A stretch of DNA of 64,000 nucleotides. Origin: Candidatus Binatia bacterium. Lineage in GTDB: Bacteria; Desulfobacterota; Binatia; UBA12015. Made by a program: the position numbers and the translations under genes. Each line of letters opens with the position of its first letter. Within the stretch, counting starts at the first letter, position 1. Location: contig JAQWJE010000014.1 in NCBI GenBank assembly GCA_029248525.1, positions 139,561 to 203,560 on the forward strand, written 5' to 3'. Below the pieces are notes generated by a model. It was not told the origin of the DNA, made no database searches, and saw nothing but the letters and a program-made list of their open reading frames with translations. Shown here piece by piece: positions 76-64,000 of the stretch.

Positions 76-2703
76 TCACTGTTCCAACTCGAAAGGCCCG
101 AGATCGACTCCTCCACCCTGAGGCCGCACAACGTGATCGAAATCCGCCGACGGGGCCGATGCGGCGTTGCCCGTATCGATCAAGTCCGAGGCGCTCCTCA
201 GCAGATGAAAATCCAATGCGTAGGTCTGCACCAGGGCGTCGATATTGGCCGGCGCGAACTCTCCGCTGGTCGCATGCGGATCGGGACGAGCAACGCTGAT
301 ATCGAATACATTCTCAAAAAGGTCCCCCAATGCGTCGGCTTGGGAGAAGGCGATGAACTCGTTGTCCTGCGCCGTCCCGAACTGCGACAAACCCACTACG
401 TAGTTGTTGGTGGTGAGCACGTTGGAAGCATTGCCGTTGTTTTTCAGTCCGTAGTCATTGCCGTCTCGCGCCCATATGACGTTGTTGGCAATCAACAGAT
501 CGTCGGCGGTATTCACCGTCATGCCGGTATAATTCGATGTGCCCGGGTAGGCACCGTTTTGAAAAACCAGATTATTGACCAGTTCGCCCCGATCGGTCTT
601 GTGGTACACCACCCCGCCAAAACCGTTATTAAACGCGATATTGTTCTCGAATCGCATACGACCGTATTGGTAGGTGGTGTTGTTTCGGGTCACGTAGAGC
701 CCTTGGCCGTCGATAATGCCGCCAGTGTAATAATCGCAGTTGCCATACGCGTCTGCGGTGCTGCTCTCCAAAGGCGAACTGCAGAACTCCATGAAGTTCC
801 AATTATTGTATACGACGTTCCCCGAATACAGGAATTTGACCGCATCTTCGGTGTCGATACTCAGCGCTGTGGCAATGACGATCGCACTCTCCGCGCTGGT
901 CGACCACCATGTTGTGTTGGAAACGGTATTTCCCTGCACGAGGATGTAGTCCGCCTTGTTGAATCGGATGCCCGAAGCTGGCGTGTGGTGAACGTCACAG
1001 TTTTCGATCACAATATGGTGCACCGGCCCCCAGCTATAGATACCGCGGCCCGTATAGAAGTTCTCCTTGGACCAACGGTGCTCGTGGGCCCATTCGTATT
1101 TGATTTCCTGGTTTGGCCCCTGGATTTCGAGGCCTTCGATCCGAACGTAGTTGGCCCCACTGCCGATTTGAATGCCGCCAAGCCCGTCGAATTGCAGCAG
1201 CGGACGAACATCGTTTCCATCCGGATAGGCCGCGATCGTGATCCAGTTGTCGGCGGTTCCCGATGCCGTCAGCCGCGCCACCAGTCCGTTGTTGACGCTC
1301 ACATTCCCGTCAATCCCATGCGCCTCCGCGAAGCCCGTATTCCTGTAGACTCCATCCTTGATGTAAAGCGTGTCCCCGGCCGTGAGCTGGGAAACCGCGT
1401 AGCCTATCGTCGCGAAGGGTGACGCCTCGTCGCCAAGATTACCGTCATCACCGTTTCCATCGACAAAGTAGACCGCACCGAGCGAGGGGCCGTACTCCAC
1501 AACGCTCAGCGTCGCGGAATCGCCATCGACCTCAAAACCGGAAGCCGCCTCCAGAGAAAAGACGATACTCTCCTCCCCCTCCAATGCCGGAGTCCTCAGG
1601 GGATCGACCTCGATATCCACGCTTTGTACACCGGCAGGAATGATCAGAGGGTTGGTCAGGAGCGTTCCGCCCGCAAGCAGTTCGTAGTCGACGCCGATCC
1701 CGGCGCTGCCACCCAGCGTGAACGTAATCTCGGTATCACGCGGCTGCACCGCCGAAAGCGAGACACGCAAAAGACCCGACTCGAGCCCGCCCTCATGGAG
1801 ACTGGCGTCGACGGCGACCACCGAGGCGGACAAGATAGAGCACCTGCCCACTTGACCGAGCGCCGCCGCCCCCGCCCCGCAGGTCGGGCAGCTATCGTTC
1901 GCAGCCCCATCGTCAAAAACCTCGCAGTCCGCCTGCAGGCCGTGAGCCTCGTTCGCAGAGAGACAGAGCTGACAGCGAGATCCGGCGCTCAGGCAACTGA
2001 CGAGGTCCGACGACCGGCTGCACAATCCCGGGAACAGTATCTCCGTCTCGAAACCGAGGCATTTCCTGTCGAGAACTTTGCGGACCTTTGCCTCCAACTT
2101 GGCGAGCTTCAATCTGGGATCGTCAACCACTGCCTGCAGGCACTCCGACTCGATATCGCCAACATCGGAGAGCGTACCGGCCTTCAACTCATTCTTGAGG
2201 CACGTACCGAAAAGCTTGGCCGTCGCAGCAGAAAGCTTCTGTGCCATCCGCAGGACGAGGTGCTGACATTTGCCCTCCTCATCGGCCCGCAAGGATCCCG
2301 CCAGATCGGAGCCGAAGAGCTCGAGAATCAGATTGCGGCCCAGTCGCGTCGCGGCCTGATTGATCTCATCTCCGGTGGCGACACCGAACGTGGGCACGAC
2401 CGGGCAAGTTTCCACCTCGGTCTCGAGAGTTTTCCGAGTGGCCTTGGCAATCTTGCCCCTGTTGTCCCTCACCGCACAGCCCAGAGGGTCCAGTTCAACG
2501 CCCTTGATCGCCGACGAAACACATTTCGCGAGTTCACCGGCCACGGTATGGCTGACCTTCTGCCCGTCCCGAACCAGTCCATTAATGCACTTCTGGGCCG
2601 CCTTGTCGGGTGCGGTCGCCCACGACCGAGCAGGCGCGCTCAGGATCAATACAAGGAAGAGCAGGACAATTGTGGCAGGATCGAGGCGGTTGGCTTGAAA
2701 CAT
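76..2703 (-). CDS. Secreted right-handed parallel beta-helix (pectate-lyase-fold/NosD-like) protein; N-terminal signal peptide and a ~250-aa cysteine-rich (Myxococcus-type Cys repeat) region
   Basis: 875-aa ORF. The N-terminus MFQANRLDPATIVLLFLVLILSAPARSWA looks like a signal peptide. Many regularly spaced Cys residues follow (C..LG.E..FPG.C pattern). The C-terminal half has parallel beta-helix repeat signatures (GNVVYNNWNF, NNIAFNNGFGG, NNLVFQNG, IANNVIW, NNYVVG). Confidence 0.6.
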   Translation of the reverse strand: MFQANRLDPATIVLLFLVLILSAPARSWATAPDKAAQKCINGLVRDGQKVSHTVAGELAKCVSSAIKGVELDPLGCAVRDNRGKIAKATRKTLETEVETCPVVPTFGVATGDEINQAATRLGRNLILELFGSDLAGSLRADEEGKCQHLVLRMAQKLSAATAKLFGTCLKNELKAGTLSDVGDIESECLQAVVDDPRLKLAKLEAKVRKVLDRKCLGFETEILFPGLCSRSSDLVSCLSAGSRCQLCLSANEAHGLQADCEVFDDGAANDSCPTCGAGAAALGQVGRCSILSASVVAVDASLHEGGLESGLLRVSLSAVQPRDTEITFTLGGSAGIGVDYELLAGGTLLTNPLIIPAGVQSVDIEVDPLRTPALEGEESIVFSLEAASGFEVDGDSATLSVVEYGPSLGAVYFVDGNGDDGNLGDEASPFATIGYAVSQLTAGDTLYIKDGVYRNTGFAEAHGIDGNVSVNNGLVARLTASGTADNWITIAAYPDGNDVRPLLQFDGLGGIQIGSGANYVRIEGLEIQGPNQEIKYEWAHEHRWSKENFYTGRGIYSWGPVHHIVIENCDVHHTPASGIRFNKADYILVQGNTVSNTTWWSTSAESAIVIATALSIDTEDAVKFLYSGNVVYNNWNFMEFCSSPLESSTADAYGNCDYYTGGIIDGQGLYVTRNNTTYQYGRMRFENNIAFNNGFGGVVYHKTDRGELVNNLVFQNGAYPGTSNYTGMTVNTADDLLIANNVIWARDGNDYGLKNNGNASNVLTTNNYVVGLSQFGTAQDNEFIAFSQADALGDLFENVFDISVARPDPHATSGEFAPANIDALVQTYALDFHLLRSASDLIDTGNAASAPSADFDHVVRPQGGGVDLGPFELEQ

Positions 2704-2934
2704 CGAGGGACTCCTCAGGTCTATTCAGAAGACCGGACATCCTGAGTGTTCCAGATGAAACACCCGAGGTCCATATCGCCAATCACCGTTTCGGATCCGG
2801 AGCCTTGGGTCCGATGCCCGCACCCTGAGAAACCCGAACTCCCGGAGCACCTGAAGCACCGTGCCGGCCTGCAGGCCAGTTGATCCCGTGGGTACCGCTC
2901 CAACCCCTTGGTTACGGGCGACCCCCAGGCGGAG

Positions 2935-2968
2935 CGGGGCTGAGAGGATCAGGATCCCCTCAGCCCCG
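2935..2968 (-). terminator. GC-rich hairpin (11-bp perfect stem gcggggctgag/ctcagccccgc, 9-nt loop) downstream of the CBM2 gene; possible terminator, no U-tract
   Basis: Inverted repeat read directly from the sequence. It lies 40-75 bp past the stop of the minus-strand gene ending at 3010. Confidence 0.35.
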
Positions 2969-3009
2969 CCAAATGCTCTACTTGAGCGGTTGAAGCCCTC
3001 CGGCAGAGG

Positions 3010-4383
3010 CTAGGGTGCCAGGGGCGTGGAGGAAGATTCCAGATTGAACCCGACAGGATCCCCAAGAGAAACCATACTCTGGAAATACTCGATCACTCCG
3101 GAGTCCGAGACATCCAGCGCCGGCCACTGTGGCCAATCAAAGGTGTCGTTCATGAACGGCTCCATCTGATCCCAACCGAGCACCGTCAGGTGGTTCACGT
3201 CGTGATTGATCGCCACCCCTTCCAATGATCGGAAGCCATGGGTCCGCCCATGCATCCATCCTCCATAATGCGGCTCCATCTTCAGCGTATGGATGAAGGT
3301 ATCCACGATCTCGTACTCCTCCAGGTACGCCGCGTAGCCCGCGTGACCATAGGACTCGACCATCTCCATCACTTGAGCTCTCATCGCTTCCTGGTTGGCA
3401 ACGGTGCGCGCCGTGCGTTGGATATCCGCAAGGATTTGCGGATCGTACCGCTCGTCCGCAATCCATCCAACCTTGGCACCCTGCATTGCGTACCAGAGTC
3501 CCACACCGAGCAGATCATTGCCCCAGGCCTGACTGTTATTGGTCAGAGATTCCGCGAACGCCCACGTGCCGACATCCTCGATTGCTGCGGCGGGAAGACC
3601 GAAGAAGGCTCGCAGGTGATTGTAGGCCTCAACCGCTTCGGTCGTGATCGCCGTGCGACCGCCCACCAACTCATCATGTTCGGAGTTGTGGTTCGAGCCG
3701 TGGAAAGTGCCCCAGGTGGTTATATCCACGTAGTCACCGGTGCTGGCCGGCGGAGGCATATGGTCATGTCCGCCGTCATCGTGGCCATCGTGACCGTCCG
3801 GCTCCGCAGGGTCAGCTGGCGGCGAATTCGTCGGCGACGGCGTTGGCGACCAGGGTGTCGGTGTCGGAGAGGCCGGTGATGGTGTCGGCTCTACTGTCGG
3901 CGCCGGAGGAGGTGTGCTGGACGGCTCGCCGGGCGGGAGCGCGTCAGAGTCCGGCCCCGGAGCGGTATTGGCCGAGCATGCTCTGCCGTTCAATCTAAAG
4001 GCCGCCGGGTCCAGCGGCGGATCGCCTTCGTAATCGGCGTAGAATCCGAAGCTGACGGAATCTCCGGCAGGTATCACTCGGTTCCATCCGACATTCTTGA
4101 CGCGAAATCCCGATGCGTCTTCCTGAATGATGCCGTCCCATAACTCCACAATCTCCTGTCGTTCCGGAACTTCGAATGCGAAGTGCCATCCGTTTTCGAG
4201 ATCGAGGTCGCGCTCACCTTCGTTGTAAATCTCCACGTTTGCAATGAAGCCGCCGGTCCATGCCTGAGTCACTTCGTACTCCACATGACACGGTCGTTGT
4301 GTTTTGCAGGCTGAGCCAAATGCAAAGCACAGAGCGATCATTCCATAACGAGAGAAAGAGCTTCCGTGTTTTTCTTGCCACAT
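3010..4383 (-). CDS. Secreted multidomain protein: signal peptide, N-terminal CBM2-like carbohydrate-binding module, Pro/Thr/Ser-rich linker, His/Asp-rich stretch, C-terminal ~280-aa domain of unknown function
   Basis: The start was moved to the internal Met (MWQEKHGSSFSRYGMIALCFAFGSA), which gives a signal peptide. The N-terminal ~100 aa have a CBM2-like Trp/Gly pattern (TQAWTGGF..V.I.N, WN..IPAGDSVSFGF). The linker is PTVEPTPSPASPTPTPWSPTPSPT, followed by HDGHDDGGHDHM. Confidence 0.55.
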   Translation of the reverse strand: MWQEKHGSSFSRYGMIALCFAFGSACKTQRPCHVEYEVTQAWTGGFIANVEIYNEGERDLDLENGWHFAFEVPERQEIVELWDGIIQEDASGFRVKNVGWNRVIPAGDSVSFGFYADYEGDPPLDPAAFRLNGRACSANTAPGPDSDALPPGEPSSTPPPAPTVEPTPSPASPTPTPWSPTPSPTNSPPADPAEPDGHDGHDDGGHDHMPPPASTGDYVDITTWGTFHGSNHNSEHDELVGGRTAITTEAVEAYNHLRAFFGLPAAAIEDVGTWAFAESLTNNSQAWGNDLLGVGLWYAMQGAKVGWIADERYDPQILADIQRTARTVANQEAMRAQVMEMVESYGHAGYAAYLEEYEIVDTFIHTLKMEPHYGGWMHGRTHGFRSLEGVAINHDVNHLTVLGWDQMEPFMNDTFDWPQWPALDVSDSGVIEYFQSMVSLGDPVGFNLESSSTPLAP

Positions 4384-4968
4384 ATCAAATCCCCTTATCG
4401 TTGGTTGTTCCGTGTCCGCTGAGAACATGGGGAAGCAGCGCTGGAATCGGTACAGCGGAAACACCATTCGAGCCGATTTTCGCGCTTAAGAAAAGATGCC
4501 GGAATCCCCTACGCAACGCGCAATCGAGATGCGAGGTCATTTGAAGTGGGCGTTGGGCAGGCAGGCCGAAAACCCCTGGGCATCAAGCTCTGCGGAGAGA
4601 CGTCCTGACAGGAGAAACTTTGCGTATCGGTGCGCACAAAAAATTCACGGAAACTCAGCGCATGCGATGGACCGACTTCGGAATACTCTACGAAGAGTCT
4701 CGCCGAGCCGCCCCCTCGAGGGTCCAGCCGCGCGCCCCGACATGAAAACTTCAACTCTCCGCAGCAGACGCAGAATCATAAAACGAAGTCGTCGGAAGAT
4801 CCGCCAAAAGTGAGAAGGCTGATTGCGGAACGAGAGCGAACAGTATTTCACACCCCGCGGGATGAAGCCGGACAGATTTCGGTCGATAGCGTGAGATCCA
4901 TGAAGCTGCCGTTGCCGCGGCATCAAATGCCTGCCCGTCAAGCTGGCACTGCAGCCCGCTCGCAGTCG

Positions 4969-5973
4969 CTATGCAACCCCGGTTGTGGCCTGAATCTCCG
5001 CAACGGACTCCCGCAATGCCTGCTCAAGAGGTCGATATTCCATGCCGAGTTCGCGCACAGCTCGGCTGCCATCAAAAAGCAGCGAGCCCGCCTGGGTAGT
5101 CTTGAGGATGTCCACCGGGAGCGCAGGACGTTGACCGGTGATCGATGCAAGCCATTCGAGGGCATACGCTACCGGAAGCAGAAGAGCTTCGGGGAGGTTG
5201 AGCGATGGTGCCGAAACCCCGGCAAGTCGCCCGATGATTTCGAAATACTCACGCGTCGTTGCCCGCTCCGTGCCCACCAGGTAAGCACGCCCCGTCGATT
5301 CATCCGAAAACAGGGCCCGCACGATTGCTTCGGCCGCATCCCGAACATGAACGTAGGTATAAACAGTATCGGCCCCGACCAGTGCAGGCAGATTCCCCGT
5401 CACGGCGCGCCCGACCTCCATTGTAGGTCGAGGGTCACCCGCGCCGATCACAGCCGCGAGGTGGACGACTGTAAGCGGAAGTTGCTGCTCGCGGTAGAGA
5501 TCCCAAGCCGCTCGATCACCAAGGTGCTTACTGCGGGCATAGTCACTCGGATGAGGACCCGCTGGTTCGTCCTCGTCAAAAGGAATCCTTGCGGGCACGC
5601 CGAAGGCTAGCGGCGTGCTGACTTGTACTGCCTTTCCCACCCCGGCCCGCACAGCTGCACGAAAGACATTCTCGGCACCTCGCTGGTTGAGGTCGTAATA
5701 CGCCACACGGCTCGGGCTCCAAAAGTCGCGGTTTCCGGCAAGGTTGATGACACCCCAGACACCGTCGAGCAATTGCTCAAGGCCGGCGGATGTGACGACG
5801 TCGCCCTCGACATAGCGGACTCGTCCATCGGCTTCTCCGCCCTCGGCCGCATCCCGCGCCGACCGACTCAAGCAGCGAAGCTCGATGTCGGGCTCGCTCA
5901 GCAAGCGCTCGACCACGTGGCGCCCAACAAATCCGGTGGCCCCGGTAATCGCGACAATACGTTTATCCGACAT
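4969..5973 (-). CDS. NAD(P)-dependent epimerase/dehydratase family protein (extended SDR)
   Basis: N-terminal Rossmann motif VAITGATGFVGRHVVERLL. 334 aa. Confidence 0.7.
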   Translation of the reverse strand: MSDKRIVAITGATGFVGRHVVERLLSEPDIELRCLSRSARDAAEGGEADGRVRYVEGDVVTSAGLEQLLDGVWGVINLAGNRDFWSPSRVAYYDLNQRGAENVFRAAVRAGVGKAVQVSTPLAFGVPARIPFDEDEPAGPHPSDYARSKHLGDRAAWDLYREQQLPLTVVHLAAVIGAGDPRPTMEVGRAVTGNLPALVGADTVYTYVHVRDAAEAIVRALFSDESTGRAYLVGTERATTREYFEIIGRLAGVSAPSLNLPEALLLPVAYALEWLASITGQRPALPVDILKTTQAGSLLFDGSRAVRELGMEYRPLEQALRESVAEIQATTGVA

Positions 5974-56017: not shown

Positions 56018-56827
56018 GTGCAGGCATTCGATGAATTAGTTCAACTTCTGGCGACCCTCCGTGCCCCCGGGGGCTGCCCTTGGGACCGCGAGCAGACCCA
56101 TCAAACGATTCGGCGCTACGCAATCGAGGAAGCCTTTGAGGTGGCCGAGGCAATCGACTCCGGCAATCCCGAGGAACTTCGGCTTGAGCTGGGAGATCTC
56201 CTGCTTCAGGTGGTTTTCCACGCCCAGATTGGCTCCGAATCCGGAAACTTTGATATCGAAAGCATTTGTCGGGGTGTGATCGAGAAGATGGAGCGGCGGC
56301 ATCCGCATGTTTTTGGCGACGTCGAGGTCGCCGATGCCGCTGCCGTTGCCCGAAATTGGGAGGAAATCAAAGCGGTGGAGCGCGGGAAATCGTCCTCCGT
56401 GCTCGATGGAGTGCCACGTGCACTGCCGGCGCTGCAGAGAGCCGAGCGAATCTCCGAGAAGGCCGCCAAGGGAGGCTATGATTGGAATCAGGCCGAGGAG
56501 GTTCTGCCCAAAATCGCCGAAGAAGCCTCGGAACTGACGGCCGCGATGGCGGCCGAGAATCCGGAGGAAATGTCTGCAGAATTTGGCGATTTGCTCTTTT
56601 CTCTGGTGAACTATGGGCGAAAGCTGGGCATCGACCCCGAGGAAGCCCTGACTCAAACCGTGCGGCGATTCGAGAGCCGATTCCGATTTGCCGAAGCCAG
56701 CGCTCGAGACTCCGGGACGAATCTGGGCGATCTGAGCGACCAGGAACGTGACGAACTTTGGGAATCGGCAAAACGCTCCACCACAACTACGCCTGGCACC
56801 ATTGACCCCAAAGCCCCTGAAGGCTAG
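56018..56827 (+). CDS. mazG: Nucleoside triphosphate pyrophosphohydrolase MazG
   Basis: CPWDREQTH...EEAFEVAEAI. Two MazG EExxE repeats. Confidence 0.8.
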   Translation: MQAFDELVQLLATLRAPGGCPWDREQTHQTIRRYAIEEAFEVAEAIDSGNPEELRLELGDLLLQVVFHAQIGSESGNFDIESICRGVIEKMERRHPHVFGDVEVADAAAVARNWEEIKAVERGKSSSVLDGVPRALPALQRAERISEKAAKGGYDWNQAEEVLPKIAEEASELTAAMAAENPEEMSAEFGDLLFSLVNYGRKLGIDPEEALTQTVRRFESRFRFAEASARDSGTNLGDLSDQERDELWESAKRSTTTTPGTIDPKAPEG

Positions 56828-56838
56828 GCATTTCCCCC

Positions 56839-57102
56839 ATGGCGAACCATCCTTCAGCCCTCAAGCGGCATCGGCAGTCCTTGAAGCGCGCAGACCGCAA
56901 CACAGCGATCCGCACCAATATGCGCAACTCAATCAAAAAGCTCCGGAGTCTCGTGGAAGCTGGCGACAAGCCCGCCGCCCAACTCCAGCTTCGAGAAGTC
57001 GAGAAAAAGCTCCAAAAGGCAGCGACCAAGGGTGTTCTTCACGCCAACGCAGCTTCCCGCCGCGTGTCCCGATTGACCCGCGCCGTGGGCGGTCTGGACT
57101 AG
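56839..57102 (+). CDS. rpsT: 30S ribosomal protein S20
   Basis: MANHPSALKRHRQSLKRADRN. 87 aa. Confidence 0.9.
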   Translation: MANHPSALKRHRQSLKRADRNTAIRTNMRNSIKKLRSLVEAGDKPAAQLQLREVEKKLQKAATKGVLHANAASRRVSRLTRAVGGLD

Positions 57103-57162
57103 GCAGAGTCGACCCTGCGGCGCCGCGCCCTCGGCTTCGCGCCCCGACTTCAGCTCCCGACT

Positions 57163-58173
57163 TCAGCTCCCGGATTCAGCTAGCAGCTTCCGCTGGCCGA
57201 TCGTGAGAAAAAGGTATTCAAGCGGCGGCGAGGCCGGTATCCCTCTTTTCGATCGAACATCGATCCGAGAGAGCTCCTGCAGAATTCGCTGCAACTCCAG
57301 TGACCGGTAGTTCCTGGCCTTGGGAACTACGAAAAAGCCCCGCCCCCCGCCGAAAGCTTTTTTTGCCTCGGCCTCCGAAAGGCCCTGATCCAAAAGAGCG
57401 CGCGCTCGCAACAGCGCCCGGACCTCTCCGGCTAACTCCCCGATCACCACCTCGGTCGCAACGCCCTGCGCCAGGGCGGTTCGGAGTTCCACCAGAGCCC
57501 GACCCATCCGTCGGTCTCGGAGGGCTCCGGAAAGTGCGAATGCCGTGCGCGCCTTGTCTCCGCCCAGGGATAGCAAGGCCTGCTCATGGGTGACCGGCTG
57601 GTCGCCGAAGCGCAAAGAGAGCTTTTCCAGCTCATTCGCGAGCCGGCCAGTATCGCCGATGACATGACCAAGCACCGCCTCTGCGGCCTCCGGTTCGAGA
57701 CGCAAGGATTTCTCCTTGCAAAGCTTCCGCAACAGATCTTTCCATTCCGGGAGGGCCTTTCGCATATCCTTTTGTTGCGGCCCGACTGTCTCGATACAAT
57801 TTGCCTTTTTCAAGGCCGCAAAAAGGCTGCGTCGCAAATCGGGTGCCTGAGCCAACAACAGCAAACGCGTGTCCTCCGAGATTGTGCCGCAAAGCTCCAG
57901 AACATCCCGCTGCAGATCGTCCTTCATGCGATCGGCCATCCGCAAGACGATCAACCGGCGACCCGTCATCGAGACGGTACGAATCGCCGTCGAGATTTCC
58001 TCGATATCCACCTTGTCTCCATAGAGAACATCGAGAGCACCAAACATCGGGGTCTTGCCGAGCCATTCGTTCTGAATCTTCTCGAGCTGGCCATCCACCA
58101 GAGCCGGATCCCCGAGCAGCAATCTGACCCGCTCCGGGTCCGGCGGGCTGGGCTTGGGGGCGGCTTTACCCAT
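57163..58173 (-). CDS. holA: DNA polymerase III subunit delta
   Basis: 336 aa. It is placed leuS-lptE-holA. N-terminal Rossmann-like plus C-terminal helical domain. Confidence 0.75.
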   Translation of the reverse strand: MGKAAPKPSPPDPERVRLLLGDPALVDGQLEKIQNEWLGKTPMFGALDVLYGDKVDIEEISTAIRTVSMTGRRLIVLRMADRMKDDLQRDVLELCGTISEDTRLLLLAQAPDLRRSLFAALKKANCIETVGPQQKDMRKALPEWKDLLRKLCKEKSLRLEPEAAEAVLGHVIGDTGRLANELEKLSLRFGDQPVTHEQALLSLGGDKARTAFALSGALRDRRMGRALVELRTALAQGVATEVVIGELAGEVRALLRARALLDQGLSEAEAKKAFGGGRGFFVVPKARNYRSLELQRILQELSRIDVRSKRGIPASPPLEYLFLTIGQRKLLAESGS

Positions 58174-58766
58174 CAGAAGTTGTCGACCATCGAGTTGTAG
58201 AGTTCGCGAGCCAGATTCTCCGAAACCTTCCGCAACGCATCACCCTGCTGCGATTCGGCGACCTGCACATCCGACAAACGCAGAAGGTCAGCCTCATTCA
58301 GTGTCGAACTCTCCTGAAACTCGGAAGACTGCGCAATCACGGTTGTCGCCGCCGCACCGTAGGAATCACTCTGCTGGAGTCCGTCAACCCGCCACACGAC
58401 CTGCCCGGTTTTCGGATTCGTGAGTCGCGCACTGATGCGAACAATTGTTTCGTACTGCAAAGCTTCGTCGCTGCGGGAAAACCCGACCGGCCGAACGTCC
58501 AGGCTCTGGACCACACCCGACAGGACCACATCGGCGCGCCCTGCCGAGGTTTGCTCAAAACTGCCTCGCTTGGCGACCTCCAACGAAAATGCTTCCTGAA
58601 TTCCGGTCACCAGGCCGGGCTCCTCGGTCGCATTTGCAAAAGGCTCGAGCGCGATCTTTGTGCCTCCGCCGGGCAACGCGGTCGCCACACCGGGAAAGTT
58701 GTACCCGCAGGAAGTCAGAAGGATCGCGGAGAAGACGACCGGCAAAATGCCTCGGAAGCTCTTCAT
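58173..58766 (-). CDS. lptE: LPS-assembly lipoprotein LptE
   Basis: Lipoprotein signal [22 protein letters not shown]. 197 aa. It is in the conserved position between leuS and holA. Confidence 0.6.
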
Positions 58767-61498
58767 CCGATCACCACATTCACCAGGCGACCCGGAACGA
58801 CGATGATCTTGCGAACTTCCTTACCTTCCAAAGCGGCCTGGACCTTCTCATTCTCGACGGCAATACCCTCGAGAGCCTCCTTCGAAACATCAGCTGCGAC
58901 GGAAAAACGCCCCCGCACCTTACCGTTGATTTGCAAAACAATCTCGAAGGAATCCTCAACGAGCGCCTCCCCGGAGTACGATGGCCACCCACCGTCGAAG
59001 ATACTCTCTCCATGCCCGAGCCAGGAATGGAGTTCCTCAGCCAGATGTGGCGCAAAGGGCGCCAATAGCCGCAGAAATACTCCAATGGTTGCAACATAGG
59101 TGGGAGAAAGATCAGCGTGCGCCGCTCGATGCTTTTGTAATTGATTCAGCATCTCCATCAACGCTGCGATCGAAGTATTGAAGGCGAGCTTTTCGAGATC
59201 CTCGGAAACCTTCTTCACGCTCGCGTGAAGAAGGCGCAGGAGATCACGATCCCCTTCACCTTCGACCCGACCTGCTTCGGCGGCAGCGATCTCGGCCGCT
59301 GCACTCGCCCGCAGAGCCGTGAGTGCCTCGCGATCCTTGCCAACAAGTGTCGTGATGCGAGTGAGAAAGCGCTCCGCCCCCGCGACCCCCTCATCACTCC
59401 ATTCCATATTGTTCTCCGCAGGTGCGGAGAACAGAATGGTAATCCGAGCAACATCCGAGCCGTGCTCCCGGATAAAGGGCCCCATCGGAACCCCGTTACC
59501 CGCGCTCTTGCTCATCTTCTCTGGGCCACTCCGAGCAAAGAAGAGTCCGTCTTTTTCCACCAAATCATGGCTGGCCGCCCGCAGAGCGGTCTGCATTTCG
59601 GATTGGGGAAGTGATCGGGCTTCGATGCCGATAGACTTGCAGAGAGACTCCGGCGCGAGCAGTTGGCCATCTTCGCTCAAGCTCAGCGGCGTTTGTACAC
59701 GGCGTTGCACCATACCCTGCGTGAACAGCGCACGGAAAGGCTCGCTCTCCGGCACAAGGCCCTCGTCAAAAAGAACTTTCGTGATAAACCGCGAATAGAG
59801 CAGATGGAGGATCGCGTGCTCCACGCCACCGATGTACTGATCCACGGGTAGCCAACGCTCCATAGCTGCCTTCGACCAAATTTCTTCGGTATTCGTAGCG
59901 TCGGCATAGCGCAGGAAATACCAGGAGGAGTCGACAAAGGTATCCATCGTATCCGTATCCCGAAACGCGACACCGCCGGTTTCCGGATCCACCGCGTTCA
60001 CAAATTCCTCGTTCGCCGCCAACGGCGAGCGACCGCGGGGTTTGTAATCCTCAATCACCGGCAACACGACCGGTAGATCCTTGTCCGGTACGGGAACAAT
60101 TGTGCCGTCAGGGCGGTGCAACATGGGGATTGGCGTCCCCCAATACCTCTGCCGACTCACCAACCAATCCCGCAAACGGTAGGTGACCTTGGCTCCCCCT
60201 TGTGACGCGGCCTCGAGCCGCGTCACAATTCCTTCGCCTGCCTCCCGATTGGGAACTCCATCCCAATCGCCCGAATTCACCAGAACGCCCTCCCCAATAT
60301 AGGCGGCATCCGGCTCGGCGGTCGGGGGCGTTTCGCCCTCGGGGACAATCACCGTCCTGCGCGAGATTTCGAATTTTTCGGCAAATGCAAAATCTCGCTC
60401 ATCGTGGGCCGGCACCGCCATGATCGCGCCTGTTCCGTATCCCGTCAGAACATAATCAGCGACCCAAACCGGAACCGATTCTCCGTTGACCGGGTTTTCC
60501 GCATAGCTGCCGGTAAATACGCCGGTCTTTTCGCGGTCGAGATTTTGCCGCTCGACATCGCTACGACGCGAGGCTGCGGCGACGTAGTCGTCCATCGCTT
60601 CGCGCTGATCGACCGTGGTCAGAGTGTCCACCAGGGCATGTTCCGGTGCAAGAACCAGAAACGTGGCTCCGAAAAGGGTGTCGGGCCGGGTCGTAAACAC
60701 CGAAATCGAATCTCCCGCGGCGCCAACGGCGAATTCGACCTGCGCACCCTCGCTGCGACCGATCCAATTGCGCTGCATGGCCTTGACCTTTTCAGGCCAT
60801 CCCGACAGTTCGTCCAGATCCTCCAAAAGACGCTCGGCATAGTCGGTGATCCGAAAAAACCATTGGTCCAGATCGCGCTTCTCGACCAGTGCGCCGCTGC
60901 GCCAACTTCGACCTTGTGCATCTACCTGCTCGTTAGCGAGCACTGTCTGATCGACAGGGTCCCAGTTGACCGTCGCCTTGGCGCGGTACGCCAGACCCCG
61001 ACGGTAGAGCAATTGAAAGAGCCATTGCGTCCATCGGTAGTAATCTGGTTTGCAGGTGGTGACCTCGCAATCCCAGTCGTAGATAATCCCTGCAGCTTCC
61101 AGCGACCCCTTGGACTCCGCGATATTCTGCAAGGTCCACTCACCCGGCGGGCGTCCGGTCTTGATCGCCGCGTTCTCGGCGGGAAGGCCGAAAGCATCCC
61201 AACCAAACGGATGGAGGACGTCATAGCCCTGCATCACGTAATACCGCGTCAGCGAGTCGCCGATATAGTAATTCTTGCCGTGGCCCATATGAAGATCGCC
61301 ACTTGGATAGGGGAACATTTCGAGCACATAGCGGCGTTCGGCATCAGGACGACGTCCCGCTTTAAAAATCCCTCGGGACTTCCAAATTTCCTGCCAACGC
61401 CCCTCGATTCGAGGATCAAACCGGAACCGGTCCTTGTCTGTTGCCTCCACGCTAACCCTCTCCGCTTCACCCGCATTGGGGACTTTGTCTTCCAACAT
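58763..61498 (-). CDS. leuS: Leucine--tRNA ligase
   Basis: HMGH ([15 protein letters not shown]) and KMSKS motifs, editing domain, ~910 aa core. The first candidate start, at 61498, is in frame with upstream nusB and no stop codon separates the two (see findings). Confidence 0.9.
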
Positions 61499-61978
61499 CG
61501 TGCGCGCCACGGCATCCAGAACACCGTTCACAAACTGCGGCGACTCATCCCCACAAAAATCACGTGCCAGACGAATGGCCTCATCGATCACAACCGCAAT
61601 CGGCGGGGCATCCGGACCCGTCATCTCGGCTACGGCCAGTCGGAGCACTTGCGCGTCCATCCGAGCCATTCTCTCCAACCGCCAACGAGCGCCGGCGCCG
61701 TCGATCTTCTCGTCAATCGCCGCGCGATGATGCCCGACTTGAAGAGCCAACCGGAGGGCTAACGCGGCCTCGGGAGGAGCATCCACCCTCGCCTCTGAAG
61801 AGACATCTGAAGGCAGCTCTTCGCTTCCGCTCCCGGCCGCAGAGTCGTCGCTCTCGACAACCAGCAGGGCCGAATCAATAGCTTCCTCTGCGGAGGCCCC
61901 GGCCAATTCCATCTGATAAAGCGCCTGCACCGCCAACCGTCGGGCGCGGCGCCGCTCTTCCACATCGGCTGCCACCAA
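61499..61978 (-). CDS. nusB: Transcription antitermination factor NusB (reads through in frame into leuS; no stop codon)
   Basis: [17 protein letters not shown] and [27 protein letters not shown] match E. coli NusB closely (RRRARECAVQALYSWQL / [28 protein letters not shown]). A TTG start is directly adjacent to the ribH stop. Confidence 0.8.
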
Positions 61979-62458
61979 TCAGCTCCGACGGGCAATCTCG
62001 GCAAGGACGCTCACCATCTCGAGCGCGGTCACCGCAGCTTCGTAGCCCTTGTTACCGTGCCCGTCACCAGACCGGGCCAATGCTTGATCCATCGTATCGG
62101 TTGTGAGAACCCCGAATGCAACCGCGATCGAATGGCGCAATCCAATTTCATTTACGCCGCGACTCACTTCCTGCGAAATGAAATCGAAATGAGGAGTTTC
62201 GCCACGAACGATTGCCCCGAGACAAAGGATTGCCTTGTAGGATCCCGTTCGCGCGCAGGCGTCGGCCGCTGCCGTAATCTCGAAAGCGCCAGGGACGTGA
62301 AAGACATCGATCGCCTCCCGCTTCGCACCATATTCGAGCAATCCAGCGATCGCCCCGTCCAGAAGCGACCGCGTCACAGCGCGATTGAATCGAGAAACCA
62401 CGATCGCATAGCGACCACCACTGGCGTCGAGCGAGCCTGTGAACTCCTGTGTCATCAA
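61979..62458 (-). CDS. ribH: 6,7-dimethyl-8-ribityllumazine synthase
   Basis: RYAIVVSRFN...HVPGAFE...GAIVRGETPHFDF. 159 aa. Confidence 0.9.
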   Translation of the reverse strand: MMTQEFTGSLDASGGRYAIVVSRFNRAVTRSLLDGAIAGLLEYGAKREAIDVFHVPGAFEITAAADACARTGSYKAILCLGAIVRGETPHFDFISQEVSRGVNEIGLRHSIAVAFGVLTTDTMDQALARSGDGHGNKGYEAAVTALEMVSVLAEIARRS

Positions 62459-63687
62459 TCCCCACCGCCCTCGCCGGAAAGCCCGCTGAGCAAATGACCC
62501 AGCTTCCTCTTTTTGGTTCGGAGATATTCGATATTGCCATCGTGCGGATCCACTTCGAGAGCCACTCGTTCGGCGACATCGATCCCGTGCTGAGAGAGTC
62601 CCTTTATCTTGCGTTCATTATTCGTCAGCAGACGGACCGACCGGATCCCCAGATCGCGCAGAATCTGCGCCGAAATCCCGTAATCGCGAGCGTCTTCCTG
62701 AAAACCGAGCTCAAGGTTCGCCTCGACCGTATCCCGTCCCTGGTCCTGCAGAGCATACGCTCGAATCTTGTTCGCCAATCCAATTCCACGGCCCTCTTGA
62801 TGAAGGTAGACGACAACACCCTCGCCAGCTTCGTCAATCCGGTGCATTGCCGCTTCGAGCTGCTCGCCGCAATCACAACGCCGCGAACCCAGGACATCCC
62901 CAGTAAGACACTGTGAATGCACCCGAACCAACGGGGCCCGGTCGGCCTGCAAACTGCCTCGTACCACGGCGAGGTGCTCCGTATCGTCAATCTTGTTGCG
63001 GTAGGCCACAGCTCGATAGGTGCCACCGAAGGACGATTCGAGATTCGACTCCTCCAACCGTTCGACAAGGAGTTCATGGCGCAGTCGATGCGCCACCACA
63101 TCCCCCACAGCCACGACCGGCAAACCATGCGTTTCGGCGAAACCCAACAAGGTGTCCCCAGCGGCCAACTCACCTGCCTCATCCAACACGGCGCAGGTCG
63201 CTGCGGCAGGCCGCAGCGAGGCCAGACGCGCGAGGTCAATGGCGGCTTCCGTTGGTCCGGGCTTTTCCAATACCCCGCCCTCGGCGGCCTGAATGGGAAG
63301 CACATGCCCGGGCATCACGATATCCGCCGAGTTGCTTCGCGCATCGACAGCCACGCGAATCGTGGCAGCGCGATCAGCTGCCGAAATCCCCGTCGTGACT
63401 CCCCGACGAGCCTCAAAGGATGTCCCGTAGGCAATAGCGGCATCGGTGGAACGATCCGCTGCGATCAGCGGAATCCCCAGACGCTCCATGGAGGCCGGCA
63501 GCAGAGGCATGCAGACCAAGCCCTTCGCGTGAACCGCCATGAAGCTCACATGATCGTCGAGAACCATCTCCGCGGCCACGCAAAGATCCCCCGCTGTAGG
63601 TTGGTTCAGATCATCCACAACCAGAATCATCTTCCCCTCGCGCAGCGCCGTGAGCGCCGGCTCCAGATTGCTTTCTTCCATCCTCAA
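62455..63687 (-). CDS. ribBA: Bifunctional 3,4-dihydroxy-2-butanone-4-phosphate synthase / GTP cyclohydrolase II
   Basis: 410 aa. The DHBP synthase N-half (ILVVDD...NQPTAGDL) and the GCHII C-half with a Cys cluster (CLTGDVLGSRRCDCG). Confidence 0.9.
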   Translation of the reverse strand: MRMEESNLEPALTALREGKMILVVDDLNQPTAGDLCVAAEMVLDDHVSFMAVHAKGLVCMPLLPASMERLGIPLIAADRSTDAAIAYGTSFEARRGVTTGISAADRAATIRVAVDARSNSADIVMPGHVLPIQAAEGGVLEKPGPTEAAIDLARLASLRPAAATCAVLDEAGELAAGDTLLGFAETHGLPVVAVGDVVAHRLRHELLVERLEESNLESSFGGTYRAVAYRNKIDDTEHLAVVRGSLQADRAPLVRVHSQCLTGDVLGSRRCDCGEQLEAAMHRIDEAGEGVVVYLHQEGRGIGLANKIRAYALQDQGRDTVEANLELGFQEDARDYGISAQILRDLGIRSVRLLTNNERKIKGLSQHGIDVAERVALEVDPHDGNIEYLRTKKRKLGHLLSGLSGEGGGD

Positions 63688-64000
63688 CTATTTCCTTCCC
63701 GCTCGTATTGGTCGGCCGGAATGCAGAATATCGCGCCCAACCATCGCTATCTCATGCGCCTCAAGTCGAATACCCTTTCCGGGGTCTTCGATTCCCAGCG
63801 GGCCGAGCATGCTTGTCCCGTCACCTCCGATGAAAACAGGCGCCTGAAAAAGTGCCACCTCATCGACATATCCGTGACGCATCAGGGAACCGGCCAGAGC
63901 CGCTCCCCCTTCAACCAGTACCGAAAGAATGTCCAATTTGCCCAGATGGCGTAGAAGGCTTTGTGGATCCACCCGGCCCGCACGACTCCCGACCCGCACG
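63688..64000 (-). CDS. ribD: Riboflavin biosynthesis protein RibD, C-terminal reductase domain (partial; N-terminus lies beyond the window end)
   Basis: LSVLVEGGAALAGSLMRHGYVDEVALFQAPVFIGG is the typical RibD/RibG reductase C-terminus. The gene runs off the window edge. Confidence 0.6.
   Translation of the reverse strand, partial: VRVGSRAGRVDPQSLLRHLGKLDILSVLVEGGAALAGSLMRHGYVDEVALFQAPVFIGGDGTSMLGPLGIEDPGKGIRLEAHEIAMVGRDILHSGRPIRAGRK

Follow-up and report, generated by a model that had tools for sequence, protein, structure and literature searches.

The 16S rRNA methyltransferase RsmB/Sun has an N-terminal NusB-like domain, classified in the same Pfam family, PF01029, and eukaryotic GluProRS is an example of an aminoacyl-tRNA synthetase fusion. 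In E. coli, IF2 alpha/beta, CheA-L/S and ClpB-95/80 are in-frame 'gene within a gene' pairs, the shorter product of each resulting from internal initiation. Fusions of aminoacyl-tRNA synthetase genes are well known, as exemplified by M. penetrans MetRS with its N-terminal ancillary domains (PMC13215547). NCBIfam already has a special model, NF040702, for IleRS with a GNAT domain. Here we describe a locus from Candidatus Binatia bacterium (assembly GCA_029248525.1, contig JAQWJE010000014.1) in which nusB, encoding a transcription antitermination factor, and leuS, encoding leucyl-tRNA synthetase (LeuRS), form one open reading frame (ORF). The locus was analysed within a 64,000-nt stretch of the contig (positions 139,561 to 203,560), hereafter the window, and all features are given in window coordinates on the minus strand unless stated otherwise. 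Very likely, the NusB-LeuRS ORF results from a real in-frame joining of the neighbouring genes nusB and leuS that evolution has maintained in a subset of Candidatus Binatia. No description of such a fusion was found in literature searches, and databases label the fused proteins only 'leucine--tRNA ligase'.

The nusB-leuS reading frame and its product

Codon-by-codon inspection of positions 58763..61978 revealed a single ORF of 1071 codons, extending from a TTG at 61978 to a TGA stop at 58765-58763, with no in-frame stop between the NusB and LeuRS parts. The nusB start is probably the GTG at 61975 rather than this TTG, as the deposited 1070-aa proteins begin there. The continuity of the nusB and leuS frames reported in the first-pass annotation is borne out, and both domains were recognized by Pfam and by NCBIfam. 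In Pfam, NusB is matched at aa 10-159 (E 2.9e-24); C-terminal to it are matches to the class I synthetase core, the editing domain of LeuRS (E 1.4e-65) and the anticodon-binding domain. With the ORF cut at codon 177 and the two parts scored separately, the N-terminal 176 aa match the nusB equivalog TIGR01951 at 115.2 bits (cutoff 88.35; model positions 1-130 of 131) and the remaining 895 aa match the leuS_bact equivalog TIGR00396 at 1035 bits (cutoff 548; model positions 5-842 of 843).

The NusB domain (aa 8-160; 61499..61957) keeps the Arg-rich N-terminus and the FVNGVLD C-terminal motif. Among PDB entries it is most similar in sequence to M. tuberculosis NusB (1EYV; E 4e-15), and the solved NusB structures 1TZT and 3D3B are also matched. 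The locus does not encode a stand-alone NusB of ~140-160 aa with its own stop codon, a difference that concerns architecture and not the family membership of the domain. The linker of ~24 residues (aa 161-184; 61427..61498) consists of the former NusB C-terminal tail and the former LeuRS N-terminal residues. LeuRS itself (aa 185-1071; 58766..61426) was identified by Pfam, NCBIfam and motif inspection, and has a HIGH motif (HMGH, aa 230-233; 61280-61291), a CP1 editing domain (PF13603; 60215-60772) with the TTRPDT and AVPAHD motifs, a KMSKS motif (aa 821-825; 59504-59518) and an anticodon-binding domain (58880-59251).

An AlphaFold2 model, constructed from a 92-sequence alignment, has a mean predicted local distance difference test score (pLDDT) of 83.4 and a predicted template modelling score (pTM) of 0.67. 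The NusB part is all-helical, with seven helices between aa 2 and 164 and pLDDT values of 84-96 outside a low-complexity, acidic and Ser-rich insertion (aa 42-68; 61775..61855). LeuRS is confidently modelled (pLDDT mostly >80), and values <50 were noted at aa 48-65, within the NusB insertion, and at aa 165-176, within the linker. The insertion sits between helices 2 and 3, and it varies in length and sequence across Binatia NusB, whether fused or unfused. The model is consistent with a flexible tether between two modules that fold independently. The predicted product would be a ~118 kDa polypeptide in which a disordered, rapidly evolving linker joins an intact NusB domain to a complete LeuRS. 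The two modules presumably function separately, with NusB taking part in rRNA antitermination together with S10/boxA and LeuRS carrying out aminoacylation and editing.

Except for the start residue, the window protein is MDG1957712.1, deposited as 'leucine--tRNA ligase [Candidatus Binatia bacterium]'. Its 90% cluster contains at least nine full-length strain variants that are 1-10 substitutions apart, with none of the substitutions in the linker, and one member of a related cluster is present on 41 contigs. When the whole ORF was searched against 5.8 billion proteins, 15 clusters with the same NusB and LeuRS Pfam architecture (1044-1129 aa, 58-99% identity) were identified, originating from NCBI, ENA, JGI and Logan assemblies. 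Altogether, 17 protein clusters (58-99% identity) have the fused architecture. The unbroken fused frame was confirmed in the DNA of L081/L082, L083/L084, L085/L086, L087, L091, L092 and L094. The fused architecture is present, in short, in independent assemblies and in diverged relatives, and separate orthologues are present in other genomes.

Origin of the junction and the internal leuS start

Four Binatia loci with the same gene context, L088, L089, L090 and L093, are unfused, with a stand-alone LeuRS of 890-897 aa (66-69% identity) and a separate nusB, encoding 155-159 aa, directly upstream of leuS. The nusB stop and leuS start overlap as ATGA in L088 and as GTGA in L090 and L093, and in L089 the nusB stop is 2 nt before the leuS start (TAGCGATG). 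The Shine-Dalgarno (SD) sequence for leuS lies inside the last nusB codons in 4/4 of these loci. The first-pass annotation had singled out the nusB 3′-end of relatives as informative, and it proved so: nusB stops overlap or abut the leuS start in unfused Binatia, and fused relatives have no stop. Separate nusB genes in all relatives, which would have counted against a fusion, are found only in the more distant Binatia clades, and these appear to show the ancestral state. In clade B fusions (see below), the internal start still reads GTGA, and its TGA is no longer in frame. The window linker has 21 aa after FVNGVLD and 9 aa before RFDP, compared with 14-19 and 3-11 aa, respectively, in the unfused relatives, and so appears to be barely more than the old NusB tail joined to the old LeuRS N-terminus.

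As the nusB stop overlaps or abuts the leuS start in the unfused relatives, the fusion appears to be derived from a translationally coupled pair of neighbours, and the precise overlap of stop and start, seen in each of the unfused clades, points to separate genes as the ancestral condition. In the ancestor, nusB would have been located directly upstream of leuS with an ATGA or GTGA junction and with the leuS ribosome-binding site in the last nusB codons. In the fused lineages, the nusB frame is continuous with that of leuS and the nusB stop is gone, so that every ribosome starting at nusB would read on into leuS; the change probably came about through small indels at this overlapping junction. 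The fusion was probably neutral or mildly beneficial, through fixed stoichiometry, rather than the source of a new biochemical activity. It may have been kept as harmless or slightly useful, or since disruption of the frame upstream of the leuS ribosome-binding site would be harmful.

In a neighbour-joining tree of the LeuRS domain (62 sequences, 200 bootstrap replicates), the fusions fall into three clades: A, the window and P0001-6 (200/200); B, P0007, P0008, P0011, P0012, P0017 and P0019 (161/200); and C, P0009, P0010, P0015 and P0045 (200/200). All fusions together were monophyletic in 0/200 replicates, and clades A and C were grouped with sister solo sequences in 144/200 and 141/200, respectively. 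Each fused clade adjoins clades with at least one verified unfused locus, and none of the three contains a nested unfused member. Fusion and/or fission appears to have taken place several times, the number and direction of the events being uncertain as the tree is distance-based with moderate support at deeper nodes. P0017, listed as a 906-aa solo LeuS nested in a fused clade, was considered as a reversion to the unfused state and rejected, as the DNA (L091; GCA_046082765.1, JBJTYI010000756.1) has a NusB-LeuRS ORF of 1127 codons at 2338..5721. The NCBI annotation of L091 begins the 906-aa LeuS at an internal GTG at 3001, so that NusB is missing from the genome annotation, and 2330-3000 (670 bp), with the whole of nusB, is without a called gene. 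A representative-library search with aa 1-260 returned no full-length fused representative in other lineages, a result that says little about wider distribution, as LeuRS clusters formed at 50% identity conceal fused proteins. In P0396 (418 aa) and P0389 (288 aa), the match to the N-terminal segment of LeuRS begins only at residue 242 and at residue 135, respectively; these proteins may have other N-terminal extensions on LeuRS or be gene-call artefacts.

The ratio of nonsynonymous to synonymous substitution rates (dN/dS) for the NusB domain is 0.10 for the window versus L081 and 0.20 for L085 versus L091. For LeuRS, the same two pairs and other comparisons with the window or L081 gave values of 0.04-0.15, from which we infer leucylation and editing activity, and values reach 0.37 in other pairs, in which strong codon bias in third-position GC content (GC3) lowers dS. 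For the putative S10/boxA binding and antitermination activity of the NusB part, the analysis covered motif conservation and purifying selection on the domain. The median dN(NusB)/dN(LeuRS) is 2.12 for fused-fused, 2.16 for unfused-unfused and 2.18 for mixed pairs and, given that fused and unfused pairs are so alike, fusion has not relaxed the constraint on NusB. The linker has a dN/dS of 0.4 to >1. Measured from FVNGVLD to RFDP, linkers of clade A have 30-38 aa, those of clade B 48-98 aa and those of clade C 44-66 aa, which implies at least 10 net length changes, every one a multiple of three. Some linkers contain short in-frame tandem repeats, GDAGDAGDAGDAGD in L091 (~2830-2880) and AAEAKAAEAKAAE in L094 (~codons 163-175), which suggests that linkers have grown by repeat slippage.

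Within the window ORF, an SD-like sequence, GGAGAGGG (61456..61463), is positioned 5 nt upstream of an in-frame GTG (codon 177; 61448..61450) that is a candidate start for a stand-alone LeuRS, the complete site at 61463-61448 being GGAGAGGG-TTAGC-GTG. Two internal starts had been proposed in the first-pass annotation. The ATG at 61498 was correctly located, but the codon at 61438, given as GTG, is GAC; the suggestion of a separate start for LeuS is supported by the conserved SD and GTG, with the relevant codon at 61450. All of the fused loci for which DNA was available (8/8) have an in-frame GTG, or TTG in L094, located 7-22 codons upstream of the LeuRS RFDP sequence, with a strong SD-like motif 5-9 nt before it. 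When in-frame NTG codons were ranked by anti-SD duplex energy, the internal site was placed 5/71, 2/93, 2/69, 1/58, 2/65, 2/59, 1/58 and 1/49, and the chance of a top-2 site within a given 25-codon window is ~0.05 per independent clade. The position corresponds to the leuS ribosome-binding site of the unfused relatives, and it is at the internal GTG that the NCBI annotation of L091 begins LeuS. On balance, we favour continued use of the ancestral leuS ribosome-binding site (SD and GTG 61450), which would yield a free LeuRS (~99 kDa) besides the fusion. Free NusB would not be made unless the linker were cleaved.

Alternative explanations

Several points weigh against the locus being a genuine and maintained fusion with a functional internal start. 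The organisms are uncultured and the fusion polypeptide is predicted from sequence alone. There may be a second, divergent nusB or leuS elsewhere in the genome, as the checks covered the window and the protein clusters. The neighbour-joining nodes that interleave fused and unfused clades are moderately supported (70-80%). The SD-like motifs are located in sequence encoding Gly, Glu and Arg-rich peptides, the composition of which favours GGAG. The absence of stops from the linker was considered as evidence of selection and rejected, as it is not significant in such GC-rich sequence, with a probability of no stop, calculated from composition, of 0.17-0.47 per locus.

It is unlikely that the fusion is adaptive, with NusB tethering LeuRS to the rRNA antitermination complex or to nascent rRNA, or serving as an appended RNA-binding domain for LeuRS. 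There are precedents, in the NusB-like domain fused to RsmB and in the RNA-binding domains appended to synthetases. The fused state, never monophyletic in the bootstrap replicates, is present in three clades and has been kept through saturating synonymous divergence as well as the in-frame changes in linker length. However, the linker is unconstrained in both length and sequence, the pTM of the model and the low-confidence linker do not suggest a fixed arrangement of the domains, the constraint on NusB is unchanged by fusion and sister clades do well without it. Simple indel toggling at the overlapping junction also explains the recurrence. In full, and with the same low probability, an adaptive origin would require that fusion arose about three times independently in Binatia, coupling LeuRS to the NusB/S10/boxA machinery or adding an RNA-binding module, with all NusB present in the 118-kDa fusion and additional free LeuRS provided from the internal start. 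If true, such coupling would connect ribosome biogenesis with tRNA charging in a way not described before.

It is unlikely that free NusB is still made from the fused ORF, whether through proteolytic cleavage within the linker or through a programmed frameshift or termination event close to the junction. The linker is predicted to be disordered (pLDDT <50) and would, for that reason, be accessible to proteases, but it has no conserved sequence to serve as a cleavage site. A TGA in the -1 frame is located just upstream of the SD in both the window and L081, but this out-of-frame stop is not conserved in L083, L085 or L087. Programmed -1 frameshifting onto the TGA at ~61470 was rejected, as the stop is not kept beyond the closest relatives. 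In addition, no slippery site or RNA element was detected, and an Rfam scan of 56500-64000 gave no match.

The idea that the NusB part is a decaying relic or a translated leader, with the real NusB encoded elsewhere and only the LeuRS from the internal start of consequence, fits the conservation of the internal SD and GTG, and the NCBI annotation of L091 treats the locus in this way. It is nevertheless very improbable. The dN/dS of NusB is 0.1-0.2, its rate relative to LeuRS equals that in unfused relatives, the full TIGR01951 model is matched above the equivalog cutoff and the NusB part is at the canonical ribH-nusB position. Closely related stand-alone NusB proteins are also lacking: a NusB-domain search of 5.8 billion proteins revealed none >50% identical, except two fragments that end at contig ends, one of them with LeuRS domains, and no second NusB was found in the 64-kb window.

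A sequencing or assembly error, the other possibility raised in the first-pass annotation besides a genuine fusion, would require that a base or stop had been missed where nusB ends and is effectively excluded: a single-base error close to the out-of-frame TGA in the linker (GGGTGAA, ~61470), just before the SD, could mimic a fusion, but the same in-frame junction is present in at least nine strain-level assemblies of the population, obtained with different pipelines, and in eight further loci with 58-86% identity and differing linker sequences and lengths.

Operon context and comparison with known systems

The gene order common to the fused loci is fabD-fabG-acpP-glyA-nrdR-ribD-ribBA-ribH-[nusB::leuS]-lptE-holA, with rpsT and mazG next on the opposite strand, and the portion present in the window, from ribD to rpsT, matches that of the fused relatives. 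The TGA stop of ribH (lumazine synthase; 61979..62458) abuts the nusB start, the start of lptE (58173..58766; identified as Pfam LptE in syntenic loci) overlaps the leuS stop as ATGA (58763-58766), and holA (DNA polymerase III delta; 57163..58173) shares 1 nt, base 58173, with the end of lptE. The entire run from ribBA through ribH, nusB::leuS and lptE to holA (57163..63687) is packed in this way, with overlapping or abutting stop/start junctions, that of ribBA and ribH being TGATG. As the genes abut or overlap, the arrangement is consistent with ribBA to holA being one operon. The ATGA at the leuS/lptE junction is the same type of overlap as the precursor of the nusB-leuS fusion. In a scan of the operon, the coding strand had no promoter-like site, and nothing resembling a terminator was found close to where nusB and leuS join. 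Long ORFs without family matches are present antisense to leuS, one of 452 aa in the window (60404..61762, plus strand) and one of 1073 aa in L091 (2266..5487, minus strand), and are most likely a by-product of the high GC content.

As a genuine fusion of neighbouring genes, the locus would mean that, throughout an entire group of uncultured bacteria, an essential synthetase is made in one piece with a conserved factor for transcription and ribosome biogenesis. It also provides a stepwise example of how an overlapping ATGA/GTGA junction may give rise to a gene fusion, with the old ribosome-binding site surviving inside the new ORF. With the proteins labelled only as leucine--tRNA ligases, and the L091 call beginning at an internal GTG, name-based inventories would wrongly report nusB as absent from the fused genomes. 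If NusB works only as the fusion, a 100-kDa C-terminal cargo would be compatible with antitermination complexes.

The NusB part of the window ORF resembles the canonical NusB of E. coli and M. tuberculosis (TIGR01951) in its full-length equivalog match, its motifs and its place directly after ribH. It differs in having no stop of its own, a C-terminal tail joined to LeuRS and a low-complexity insertion of ~27 aa. Similarly, the LeuRS part has the complete catalytic, CP1 editing, leucine-specific and anticodon-binding/C-terminal domains of bacterial LeuRS (TIGR00396) and is encoded, as in the leuS-lptE-holA cluster, with lptE and holA downstream, whereas the N-terminal extension of ~180 aa, a whole NusB, and the replacement of the start methionine by an in-frame GTG (Val) are peculiar to the Binatia fusion. 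In common with RsmB/Sun, a NusB fold is N-terminal to an RNA-acting enzyme. In the Binatia protein, however, that domain is the orthologous NusB, as judged by equivalog score and synteny, and not a diverged paralogue, it is joined to a synthetase and the fusion arose recently in evolution. As in other synthetase fusions, a housekeeping synthetase has gained an extra domain by gene fusion, but here the partner is a transcription antitermination factor that can be traced to a neighbouring, translationally coupled gene. Finally, the long ORF with a conserved internal SD and start for a shorter C-terminal product, predicted here, is the organization of the IF2, CheA and ClpB pairs; in Binatia, in contrast, the internal start, predicted from the sequence to be used, would be an original start codon kept from a gene that was once separate.

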